Shown here: piece after piece, positions 510 to 1,877 of the stretch
How the letters are laid out: every line of letters starts with the position of its first letter
How positions within the stretch are numbered: the stretch's first letter is position 1
DNA from: a virus
IMG/VR virus record: IMGVR_UViG_3300005563_001145
Strand: one strand, 5' to 3'
Length of the DNA: 13,711 nt
The notes under the pieces: generated by a model
Told to the model about the DNA's origin: nothing
The model's input: the letters and a program-made list of their open reading frames with translations, nothing else
Database searches by the model: none
Program-made: the position numbers and the translations under genes

Positions 510-1877
510 ATGAGCAAAGCCATTCTGGTTGCCGGATTGGGGTTCGGCGACGAGGGTAAGGGAACCATCACGCAATACCTCGCCAGCGAGATCAAAGCCG
601 ATATGGTCGTTCGCTACAATGGCGGCGCCCAGGCTGCTCATAACGTCTACGCTCAGAACGGACGACACCACACGTTCTCTCAGTTCGGCAGTGCCACCTT
701 CGAAGGGGTTCCTACCTTCATCTCTCGTCACGTCATCGTAGACCCAGCCGCCTTCATGAAGGAGGAATGGGATCTCTACGAGAAGGGGATGAAAGGCGCC
801 TACAAGAAGGTGCTGTTCGACCGGAATGCGCTCGTCGTCACTCCGTTCCACAGTGCTGCGAACCGTCTTCGCGAGATTCTTCGCGGCGACGGGAAACACG
901 GTAGCTGCGGGATGGGGATCGGTGAGACCAAGCAGGACTCCCTCTCCTCACACAACGACAGCGTCACCATGGGTGACCTTTCAGATAAGGCAACACTCCT
1001 CCGAAAGTTCAAGTCCATCCAAGAGCGCAAGTACGAGGAGTTCAAGAGTCAGATCTTGGACGTTTCTCTTCCAGACGTTGCCCATCGAGCACTTCGCTGG
1101 TTCACATTCCCGACCGAGCGAGTCGAGCATATGGCAGGGCGCCTGCACGATCTGAAGGGTGTGTTCACCACCGTCGACTCGGACGACCTGCCCAGCCTTC
1201 TTCATGGCAAGAACCTAGTCTTCGAAGGGGCGCAGGGCGCGCTGCTCGATCAGGACTATGGCTTCCAACCCTACACCGCCTGGACGGATGCGACCTTCAC
1301 CGGCGCACGCCAGATTCTCGATGCTGCTGGCTATGACGGCGACATCTGGAAGGTTGGAGTGATGCGCTCGTACATGACGCGGCATGGGGCTGGCCCGTTT
1401 CCCACCCACGATCAGATTTTCCAAGTCGAGGAAGGCGGAATCAAAGAGCTCGTGCTCGACAGGCACAACGGCACTGGCTTGTGGCAGGGCTCTTTCCGCG
1501 TCGGGGCACCTGACGTCTTGATGACGAGATATGCTCTGGATGTGGTCGGAGGCGTCGATGAGATCGCCATGACGCACATCGATCAGCGGCATCATTTCGA
1601 CTGGATCGGTGTCGGCTATGCGGTTCACGACGAAGAAGACGAACCGTTCTTCCAGTTCGGTAGCCCATCCCATCGAGCCCTCGACATCCATATCCAGAAG
1701 AACCCTACCTACGCTCATCAGCAGCGGCTGGCCGAGGCCCTGACTCGGGTCGCGCCGTGCTATGAGCGAGCCCCGAAGGACACCGATGGGTTCCTCCACA
1801 TCATGAAGCAGCATCTCCAGACGCCGATCGGCATCATCTCGACGGGCTGCGAACCGAGCAAGAAGTTCAGACCCTAG
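510..1877 (+). CDS. purA: Adenylosuccinate synthetase (PurA/ADSS) family protein, divergent
   Basis: The N-terminal P-loop GLGFGDEGKGT aligns with PurA QWGDEGKGK. Other PurA-like blocks are VVRYNGG...AAH (PurA VVRYQGGHNAGH), FEGAQGALLD (PurA FEGAQGTLLD), TRHGAGPFPT (TRVGAGPFPTE) and IISTGCEP (IISTGPDR). Length (455 aa) is that of a bacterial PurA. There is an SD-like gagggga before the ATG. Divergent at the Arg cluster (GRRRR -> GLWQGSFR) and TKLD -> THID. Confidence 0.8.
   Translation: MSKAILVAGLGFGDEGKGTITQYLASEIKADMVVRYNGGAQAAHNVYAQNGRHHTFSQFGSATFEGVPTFISRHVIVDPAAFMKEEWDLYEKGMKGAYKKVLFDRNALVVTPFHSAANRLREILRGDGKHGSCGMGIGETKQDSLSSHNDSVTMGDLSDKATLLRKFKSIQERKYEEFKSQILDVSLPDVAHRALRWFTFPTERVEHMAGRLHDLKGVFTTVDSDDLPSLLHGKNLVFEGAQGALLDQDYGFQPYTAWTDATFTGARQILDAAGYDGDIWKVGVMRSYMTRHGAGPFPTHDQIFQVEEGGIKELVLDRHNGTGLWQGSFRVGAPDVLMTRYALDVVGGVDEIAMTHIDQRHHFDWIGVGYAVHDEEDEPFFQFGSPSHRALDIHIQKNPTYAHQQRLAEALTRVAPCYERAPKDTDGFLHIMKQHLQTPIGIISTGCEPSKKFRP

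Follow-up and report, generated by a model that had tools for sequence, protein, structure and literature searches.

The DNA analysed here is a stretch of 13,711 nucleotides (hereafter, the window) of the IMG/VR virus record IMGVR_UViG_3300005563_001145, in which features are located by window position. From its gene content the window reads as a fragment of a large tailed phage, and megablast of its whole length against 50,697 phage records gave no match. Our subject is the open reading frame (ORF) at 510-1877, for which a sequence-only reading had recognised the adenylosuccinate-synthetase fold and had asked whether the product is a housekeeping enzyme of adenosine monophosphate (AMP) synthesis or a nucleotide-modifying paralog similar to PurZ, the N6-succino-2-amino-2'-deoxyadenylate synthase of Z-genome phages. 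The ORF is intact, with 455 codons for amino acids (aa), an ATG start, a TGA stop and a GAGGGG Shine-Dalgarno sequence upstream, and Pfam PF00709 covers residues 7-448 of the protein (211 bits against a cut-off of 27, E 3e-62). The following features lie at this end of the window:

3..326 (plus strand): 3' end of a vWA-like (MIDAS) gene, its last 107 codons and the stop, the 5' part being beyond the window start
326..460 (plus strand): ORF of 44 aa, predicted to form one transmembrane helix, located after the vWA-like gene and before the PurA-like gene
510..1877 (plus strand): PurA-like enzyme of 455 aa, placed here in a 'WQ-loop' third clade of the adenylosuccinate synthetase superfamily

Residue roles were transferred from E. 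coli PurA by MAFFT and hhalign alignment; E. coli numbering is used unless window numbering is indicated, and conservation percentages were calculated over 269 distinct members of the clade. The motifs that define the active site are distributed along the plus strand as follows:

546..566 (plus strand): P-loop GDEGKGT; catalytic D13 and K16 kept (D 99%, K 99%), K18 replaced by Thr
621..641 (plus strand): GGAQAAH; catalytic acid H41 kept (100%), N38 replaced by Gln (99%)
900..923 (plus strand): GSCGMGIG; Thr pair T128/T129, which binds the phosphate of inosine monophosphate (IMP), replaced by Ser-Cys (Cys 97%), and R131 by Met
1224..1238 (plus strand): EGAQG; Q224, contact to the purine 6-oxo group, kept (99%)
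1377..1403 (plus strand): TRHGAGPFP; V273 replaced by His, invariant in the clade (100%)
1476..1505 (plus strand): GLWQGSFRVG, the rebuilt aspartate loop, in place of GATTGRRRRTG; W 91%, Q 98%, F 81%, R 100%
1572..1583 (plus strand): THID; guanine-specificity residue D333 kept (100%), K331 replaced by His (70%)
1836..1847 (plus strand): ISTG; guanine O6-contacting S414 kept (91%)

Most of the deviations from E. coli PurA that the sequence-only reading had listed are confirmed by this alignment: the P-loop ending in GKGT (K18T), GGAQAAH (N38Q) and GSCGMGIG are present at the positions given above, and THID is exactly where it had been placed. The replacement of the arginine cluster by GLWQGSFRVG also holds, although the motif had been quoted at nt 1471-1506 and is in fact found at 1476-1505. 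Furthermore, the substitutions at substrate-contacting positions are conserved across the 269 relatives and are not the noise of one sequence.

The catalytic set of PurA (D13, K16, H41 and Q224) is complete in the window protein and is found in 99-100% of the members, and with D333 and S414 included the kept residues are 91-100% conserved. The guanine pocket is conserved, as are the residues that deprotonate the base N1, that stabilise the phosphate during its transfer and that contact O6; the retention of D333 and S414, with K331 changed to His, would be compatible with the use of guanosine triphosphate (GTP). The site of the second substrate has been replaced. The TTGRRR of the PurA aspartate loop has become WQGxFR in the clade; in the window protein the Thr pair and three of the four Arg are gone according to both aligners, and the one remaining Arg (R330, window numbering) aligns with R306. 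With the loop reading WQG-SFR and Met at position 131, the features of the L-aspartate site T300/T301, R303-R305 and R131 are all replaced; R303 is reported to contact both aspartate and the O2' of IMP (PMC8342488). The clamp on the IMP 5'-phosphate, formed by N38/T129/T239/R143, reads Q/C/A/S in the window protein, and across the clade these positions are Q in 99%, C in 97%, T in 95% (T239) and not conserved at R143. The replaced residues are as fixed as the kept ones (in window numbering, Q41 99%, C133 97%, W258 97%, H292 100%, W325 91%, Q326 98%, F329 81% and R330 100%), and the window protein carries the full signature of the clade, which consists of Q41, C133, W258, H292, W325-Q326, F329 and R330 together with D14, K17, H44, Q242 and D358 (window numbering).

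According to the NCBIfam models, the protein is neither PurA nor PurZ. The five PurA equivalog models (NF002223, TIGR00184, NF010355, NF010357 and NF003295) gave scores below their cut-offs in all cases (167/402, 149/396, 134/445, 113/700 and 95/368 bits), as they also did for a Rhodococcus member of the clade, and the PurZ model NF038379 gave 44 bits against a cut-off of 300. An AlphaFold (AF2) model built on 36 relatives, with a mean predicted local distance difference test (pLDDT) value of 91.6, was superposed best by Foldseek on long bacterial and eukaryotic PurA structures, with template modelling (TM) scores of 0.76-0.81, which together with the PF00709 match bears out the fold assignment; sequence identity was 24-26% in these superpositions and 24-30% to PurA in general. 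The fit to PurZ and PurZ0 structures was poor in comparison (TMq 0.44-0.57, identity 11-19%), with a TMq of 0.55 and an identity of 13-14% for PurZ. In a neighbour-joining tree of 25 sequences, which comprised 18 members of the clade, five canonical PurA (drawn from four phyla) and two PurZ, each of these three groups was monophyletic in 100/100 bootstraps, so that the clustering inside bona fide PurA that the sequence-only reading had named as evidence against its own suspicion is not what the tree gives. The protein departs from PurA in four features, which are equivalog score, aspartate site, phosphate clamp and tree position, and from PurZ in three, which are the Ser13 of the latter, model score and architecture. 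It is very probably a member of a third clade of the adenylosuccinate-synthetase superfamily, neither PurA nor PurZ, that resides in a vWA/J-pseudokinase module.

A PurZ- or PurZ0-like activity, in which deoxyguanosine monophosphate (dGMP) and aspartate would be condensed for 2-aminoadenine (Z) DNA, is extremely unlikely. Like PurZ/PurZ0 (of phiVC8, S-2L and Gordonia phage Archimedes), the protein is encoded by a phage, belongs to the PurA superfamily and would differ from PurA in its specificity, and both PHROGs and RefSeq lump the clade under the PurZ-derived label '2-aminooxy adenylosuccinate synthetase'. However, Ser takes the place of Asp13 in all 147 phage PurZ examined (PMC12884076), whereas the clade protein keeps Asp; PurZ retains Thr and Arg residues for the binding of aspartate (at the positions of T301, R305 and R306), whereas the clade protein has lost the aspartate loop; and the PurZ of phiVC8 and S-2L lost the guanine-specific Asp that the clade protein retains as Asp333. 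PurZ is a short protein of archaeal type (~340-370 aa) that travels with datZ, mazZ, dutZ or dpoZ, whereas the clade protein is of the long bacterial type; no MazG-like, HD-dATPase or DpoZ gene is found in the 13.7-kb window (as the sequence-only reading had stated), and no datZ, mazZ or dpoZ was found in the window or in the 10 kb on either side of the locus in three syntenic relatives (L010-L012). Moreover, many bacteria carry the family on their chromosomes. A PurZ identity, about which the sequence-only reading had been rightly doubtful, is rejected on the residues, the model score, the architecture, the position in the tree and the gene context.

The gene context is highly conserved. In the phage contigs L010-L012 a gene coding for a DnaJ and protein-kinase-like protein is followed by a 340-aa Pfam-less gene, a tiny ORF and the PurA-like gene; gp249, gp250 and gp252 of Catera are the same trio (35-39% identity), which is also found on bacterial chromosomal contigs. 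Linkage was counted at loci found through the PurA-like gene and flanked on each side by 3 kb or more (62 genomic and 64 viral):

vWA-like gene beside the PurA-like gene: 60/62 genomic, 64/64 viral, 124/126 in total
kinase-like gene at PurA-like loci: 57/62 genomic, 52/64 viral, 109/126 in total
NrtR-type Nudix gene at PurA-like loci: 26/62 genomic (42%), 9/64 viral (14%)

When viral loci were centred on the vWA-like gene, 78/80 carried the PurA-like gene, and in cultured phages the per-genus hit counts of the two genes are identical (Mycobacterium 202, Mycolicibacterium 1, Rhizobium 10 and Vibrio 6). The linkage is kept though the order of the genes varies (KVP, NKVP, NVPK and VP). In the window the vWA-like gene is adjacent to the PurA-like gene on the same strand, and in the closest relatives (L173, L010, L011 and L012) the kinase-like gene is directly upstream of the vWA gene. 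All-against-all clustering of ORFs over 167 loci, carried out as a test for recurring neighbours, gave the NrtR-type Nudix gene (42 loci) as the only further conserved neighbour and no adenylosuccinate lyase recurring within ~8 kb of the PurA-like gene; no replacement enzyme was found downstream in L201, the single vWA and kinase locus lacking an adjacent PurA-like gene. ORF 510-1877 is the enzymatic subunit of a conserved module composed of a J-domain pseudokinase, a MIDAS vWA protein and the PurA-like protein, to which the NrtR-type Nudix protein is often added. The module begins upstream of the window and could not be seen in the sequence-only reading. We have found no description of the clade or of the module in the literature.

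The closest relative of the window is IMGVR_UViG_3300005535_000017 (L093/L173), a contig of 210,330 bp with 77-79% identity, in which the locus is split: the PurA-like gene lies at one contig end, and the genes of the vWA protein and the J-pseudokinase lie at the opposite one. From this arrangement the contig is probably the complete genome, in circular permutation, of a jumbo phage of ~210 kb.

The clade is large and widespread. More than 100 relatives with 39-50% identity that share the signature were obtained in a search of 5.8 billion proteins, and scans of species-representative genomes and of IMG/VR gave 579 confirmed relatives and 163, respectively. They belong to Actinomycetes, Myxococcota, Chloroflexota (with many carriers) and Patescibacteria, including Saccharibacteria, and to genera such as Kitasatospora, Streptomyces, Rhodococcus, Micromonospora, Actinomadura, Myxococcus, Archangium and Variovorax. 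Among cultured-phage records, the PurA-like gene is present in 202 of Mycobacterium (cluster C: Catera, Sebata and relatives), 10 of Rhizobium and 6 of Vibrio, and jumbo-phage contigs also hold clade members. Megaplasmids carry copies in Rhodococcus jostii RHA1 (pRHL1), R. opacus (pLPS8, protein WP_242323790) and Allorhizobium ampelinum S4. The clade has bacterial carriers that are known as purine prototrophs. Because of its plasmid-borne copies and its presence in prototrophs, the clade gene is probably an accessory paralog and not the housekeeping enzyme.

These data bear directly on the possibility that the protein is a genuine adenylosuccinate synthetase (using IMP, aspartate and GTP) with a divergent aspartate pocket, working as an auxiliary metabolic gene that boosts AMP/dATP, which we consider unlikely. 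It resembles PurA (EC 6.3.4.4; E. coli, PDB 1CG0 and 1ADE) in its complete fold, domain order, P-loop Asp and Lys, catalytic His, Gln224, Asp333 and Ser414, so that D13, K16, H41, Q224 and the guanine pocket are all kept, and probably also in a GTP-driven phosphorylation of the purine 6-oxo group. Genes of nucleotide metabolism are found in the vicinity: the window encodes ThyX, the copy in L012 is directly preceded by NT5C, and that of phiKT1024 has an anaerobic ribonucleotide reductase close by. Adenylosuccinate synthetase is also the name given by depositors and PGAP to genes of the clade. However, throughout the clade T300/T301 and R303-R305 are replaced by the WQGxFR loop, N38Q/T129C/V273H are fixed, and neither R131 nor the R143 donated across the dimer is present, while the PurZ enzymes, for which aspartate is still a substrate, have retained the counterparts of T301, R305 and R306. 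The protein scores under half of every PurA equivalog cut-off and its clade is separate from canonical PurA; it is an extra copy on megaplasmids, in prototrophic bacteria and in Saccharibacteria; a simple metabolic gene would not need the near-constant linkage to a vWA protein and a pseudokinase, beside which this paralog, unlike PurA, is fixed; and no lyase recurs at its loci. The housekeeping role that the sequence-only reading had offered as one alternative is rejected by the model scores (167 bits against 402 for the best), the aspartate loop, the paralog status and the module linkage. A second type of PurA paralog was also considered: ToyG of the toyocamycin pathway works with an adenylosuccinate-lyase homolog, and this candidate was dropped with the aspartate loop lost and with no lyase or deazapurine genes recurring nearby.

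The partner proteins are themselves distinctive. The 340-aa partner has a vWA fold with an intact MIDAS, DxTGS..T..D (D82xT84G85S86 ... T174 ... D193), and in 118/120 homologs (P0121-P0240) its N-terminus is MG[GS][ST]xW[SN]D[DE]xY. It has a flexible low-complexity tail that in ~70-80% of the 120 homologs finishes in [VI]xRL, and the product of window 3-326 terminates in the C-terminal tail typical of this family, ...SGAKRL; in more divergent members the MGxGx[WF] start is kept and the RL end is not. No Pfam domain, NCBIfam model or PADLOC match was obtained for this protein, which PGAP names 'hypothetical protein', even though the family comprises ~1000 clusters (50% identity) at E < 1e-30. 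In some cluster C phages (L004/L005; Cane17, CharlieB, Lukilu, Alice and others) the vWA-like gene is matched in two pieces over ~1.7 kb, compared with the usual ~1.0 kb, and the feature under the match in CharlieB is annotated as an HNH endonuclease. Metagenomic homologs of 581-595 aa (P0269 and P0366) show a weak Hint/intein match near residue 178, beside the conserved T174/D177, which suggests the invasion of a conserved vWA site by an intein or homing element.

In the case of the kinase-like partner, the HPD motif of a J-domain is found in 49/77 sequences and a Pfam DnaJ match in 22/77, and a zinc ribbon takes the place of the J-domain in some bacteria. It has a protein-kinase fold in which the beta3 Lys and alphaC Glu are kept, the HRD Asp is changed to Ala and there is no conserved DFG Asp. 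From these motifs it is most likely a nucleotide-binding pseudokinase. The Nudix partner falls within the NrtR/ADP-ribose-pyrophosphatase lineage and in most cases has the winged helix of NrtR; its Nudix box, intact in Actinomycetes, has degenerated in Patescibacteria. Other genes found near the module code for a NADAR family protein and a TROVE protein in Vibrio phage phiKT1024 (L257), for a HAD hydrolase, a phosphoribosyltransferase-like protein and an NMNAT/Nudix protein in Rhizobium phage RHph_TM3_3_6 (L258), and for WGR-PARP and Fic proteins in L010 (20854-21350). On plasmid pAtS4e of Allorhizobium ampelinum S4 (L252 7479-13032), AAA ATPase, DUF5682 and DUF4132 genes are directly downstream of the Nudix/kinase-like/vWA/PurA-like operon, and a VgrG gene of a type VI secretion system (T6SS) is upstream of it.

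The combination of a vWA protein with a kinase fold recalls conflict-system architectures such as TerY-P, and the PurA-like protein could in principle be no ligase at all, but a GTP-binding or GTP-hydrolysing regulatory or effector subunit (a switch, or one that depletes GTP/IMP) of a vWA-pseudokinase conflict system borrowed by phages. The spread of the module, which favours Actinomycetes, Myxococcota and Chloroflexota and includes plasmids, is in line with this, and vWA 'peptide-binding chaperones' are part of predicted NrtR-regulated systems (PMC9503650). However, D13, H41 and Q224, conserved in 99-100% of the clade, act on the acceptor base and not on GTP, PADLOC models match neither the PurA-like nor the vWA proteins, and the module is retained in hundreds of cultured phage genomes; we regard such a subunit as improbable. 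The module was also rejected as a known defence system, since PADLOC gave only generic kinase-domain matches (PD-T4-6, MkoA and mad6), and these for the kinase-like protein.

The likeness to TerY-P (a triad of the vWA protein TerY, a Ser/Thr kinase and a PP2C phosphatase, reported as a defence system) is limited to the pairing of vWA with a kinase fold. In both systems a MIDAS vWA protein and a kinase-fold protein are encoded in one operon in bacteria and mobile elements, but our module has no PP2C and has the PurA-like enzyme in the third position, its kinase fold lacks the HRD and DFG aspartates and bears a J-domain, and its vWA protein is not matched by PADLOC. NrtR-regulated, ARG-centred ADP-ribose systems with vWA 'chaperones' have been predicted by Iyer, Burroughs, Aravind and co-workers (PMC9503650), in which an NrtR-type Nudix/winged-helix gene, a vWA gene and the gene of an enzyme are likewise packed into a compact operon, and in the same lineages, including actinobacteria. 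Unlike them, the module has no ADP-ribosylglycohydrolase or rhodanese-phosphatase, and its enzyme is predicted to be of ligase-type chemistry; PurA is not mentioned in the main text of that paper.

Taking all this into account, our overall reading, to which we assign a probability of about 0.55, is that the protein is the enzyme of the module, belongs to a third clade and would join a GTP-activated, IMP-like lactam to an amine other than free aspartate. The enzyme would transfer the gamma-phosphate of GTP onto the 6-oxo group of a hypoxanthine-type ring, and as Asp13 is kept, the substrate would lack a 2-amino group, unlike dGMP. The site of the attacking amine seems to have been rebuilt from a polar and cationic one (Thr, Thr, Arg, Arg, Arg) to an aromatic and neutral one (Trp, Gln, Phe, His), and because these replacements are conserved free L-aspartate is probably not the nucleophile; taken by itself, the proposal of a ligase with a non-aspartate nucleophile, which we draw from aligned residues, is tentative. 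With R143 lost and with N38Q and T129C fixed, the nucleotide would be held differently at its 5' end and may bear there something other than a simple 5'-monophosphate, and the homodimer that supplies R143 in PurA may not form. Of the readings considered from sequence at the outset, these data agree best with the ligation of a different amine or nucleotide.

As an alternative, an ammonia-dependent aminase could convert IMP, inosine triphosphate (ITP) or its deoxy form dITP directly into the adenine nucleotide, for example to repair the purine pool after a deaminase-type attack, with a chemistry that would resemble that of CTP synthase. This would agree with the retained phosphoryl-transfer machinery, with a formerly charged aspartate pocket that is now hydrophobic (W, F, H), with the loosened monophosphate clamp and with a lyase partner being neither needed nor found. 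On the other hand, it leaves unexplained the near-obligate vWA and J-domain-pseudokinase partners and the Nudix partner, there is no glutaminase or ammonia-channel partner, and the nucleotide itself is putative, so that we consider an aminase quite unlikely.

MIDAS vWA domains bind acidic residues of ligand proteins and J-domains recruit Hsp70. Because these near-obligate partners are of protein-binding types, the enzyme may, speculatively, act within a protein complex, on a protein or peptide ligand or under its control, and the NrtR-type Nudix, NADAR, NMNAT and PARP neighbours hint at a link to an ADP-ribose and nicotinamide adenine dinucleotide (NAD)-centred conflict between phage and host, which is equally speculative and would resemble what has been predicted for other operons that combine NrtR and vWA (PMC9503650). 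A more specific version, which we put forward as a long shot, is that the GTP-activated C6 of an inosine-type nucleotide is joined to a protein amine, the best candidate being the N-terminal glycine of the vWA protein. This glycine would be exposed after removal of Met and the product would be an N6-linked protein-nucleotide conjugate ('purinylation'); the J-domain pseudokinase together with the host Hsp70 would exert control, and ADP-ribose sensing of the NrtR type would tie the reaction to phage-host conflict. The role of the enzyme is probably neither bulk AMP supply nor 2-aminoadenine DNA, and its product is probably neither adenylosuccinate nor the Z base.

Several observations weigh against the reading of the protein as a module enzyme that uses an amine other than free aspartate. 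The window protein has Ala at T239 (codon 257, nt 1278-1280), a ligand of the IMP 5'-phosphate that is Thr in 95% of the clade, in canonical PurA and in the closest relatives P0002-P0011. The register of the aspartate loop differs by one residue between MAFFT and hhalign, and this loop is the lowest-confidence region of the AF2 model (pLDDT 60-71). R330 and the conserved basic residues R286, R291 and H292 (window numbering) remain near the site, and an aspartate pocket may have been rebuilt from them; residue roles are, indeed, putative throughout the clade. With respect to the module, the kinase-like gene is absent from ~13% of the loci and the Nudix gene from most of them (present in only 42% of the genomic and 14% of the viral ones), the kinase gene and the N-terminal two-thirds of the vWA gene would lie beyond the window, to judge from the syntenic relatives (L173/L093, with the identity given above), and the NAD/ADP-ribose neighbours are recurrent but not universal.

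The PurA superfamily has been treated as having two activities, AMP synthesis by PurA and Z-base synthesis by PurZ. In a 2026 survey, 481 PF00709 homologs were found in phage genomes, of which ~147 were assigned to PurZ and the remainder was not characterised (PMC12884076). The window gene belongs to the phage homologs outside PurZ, and these include a coherent, widespread clade whose second-substrate pocket has been rebuilt and conserved and whose near-obligate partners lack annotation in Pfam, NCBIfam, PGAP and PADLOC. If its chemistry is new, it would be a third reaction type for this fold and could be a new nucleotide-based step in phage-host conflict, and if the product were a protein-nucleotide conjugate or a new signalling nucleotide the finding would be categorically new. 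The labels 'adenylosuccinate synthetase' and '2-aminooxy adenylosuccinate synthetase' are probably misleading for genes of the clade and unfit for inferring AMP auxiliary metabolism or Z-genomes. Cultured carriers are available in the cluster C Mycobacterium phages Bxz1 and Catera, Rhizobium phage RHph_TM3_3_6, Vibrio phage phiKT1024, R. jostii RHA1 (pRHL1) and A. ampelinum S4.

The small ORF that separates the vWA-like gene from the PurA-like one has a start codon overlapping the stop codon of the former (TGATG). The same slot is occupied by ORFs of 49-50 aa in the syntenic relatives L010 (9795-9947) and L012 (9217-9366) and by the 88-aa gp251 in Catera, and the 44-aa ORF may be specific to the phage clade of the window.

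Downstream of the PurA-like gene, the window contains the following genes:

1874-3307 (minus strand): fusion of a LigD-type 3'-phosphoesterase and an ATP-dependent DNA ligase (nucleotidyltransferase and OB domains), 477 aa
3344-3781 (plus strand): weak match to a 2H/CPD-like phosphoesterase
6681-7220 (plus strand): SpoU-family methylase
7213-7815 (plus strand): phosphoesterase (metallophosphoesterase) of phrog_547
7817-8773: ThyX
9888-11969: rIIA
11982-13121 (plus strand): rIIB

The ligase fusion is convergent with the PurA-like gene, the 3' ends overlapping by 4 nt, and is kept at the same position in L010-L012; in Catera a polynucleotide kinase gene is found just upstream of the module. The genes at 3344-3781, 6681-7220 and 7213-7815, near the ligase, may form with it a set for the repair of RNA or DNA ends. 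A 931-aa homolog of the eukaryotic major vault protein (MVP) is encoded at 3785-6580 (plus strand), with 83.6 bits to Pfam MVP_shoulder and a phmmer E value of 3e-16 between its residues 529-803 and solved MVP chains. It has no PHROG family, its matches in the phage collection are limited to three uncultured phage records of 462-735 kb (~35% identity over 97-98% of the length), and it is found in the syntenic relatives L011 and L012 and not in L010. The 361-aa protein encoded at 8794-9879 (plus strand) starts with a zinc ribbon of the RanBP type, has a predicted transmembrane segment and is rich in Cys, Tyr and Thr in its C-terminal half; no PHROG or other family matched it, and a similar gene of 360 aa is present in L010. 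Finally, the rIIB homolog has a long low-complexity acidic insertion rich in Asp and Glu (~12680-12900) before its basic C-terminal domain.

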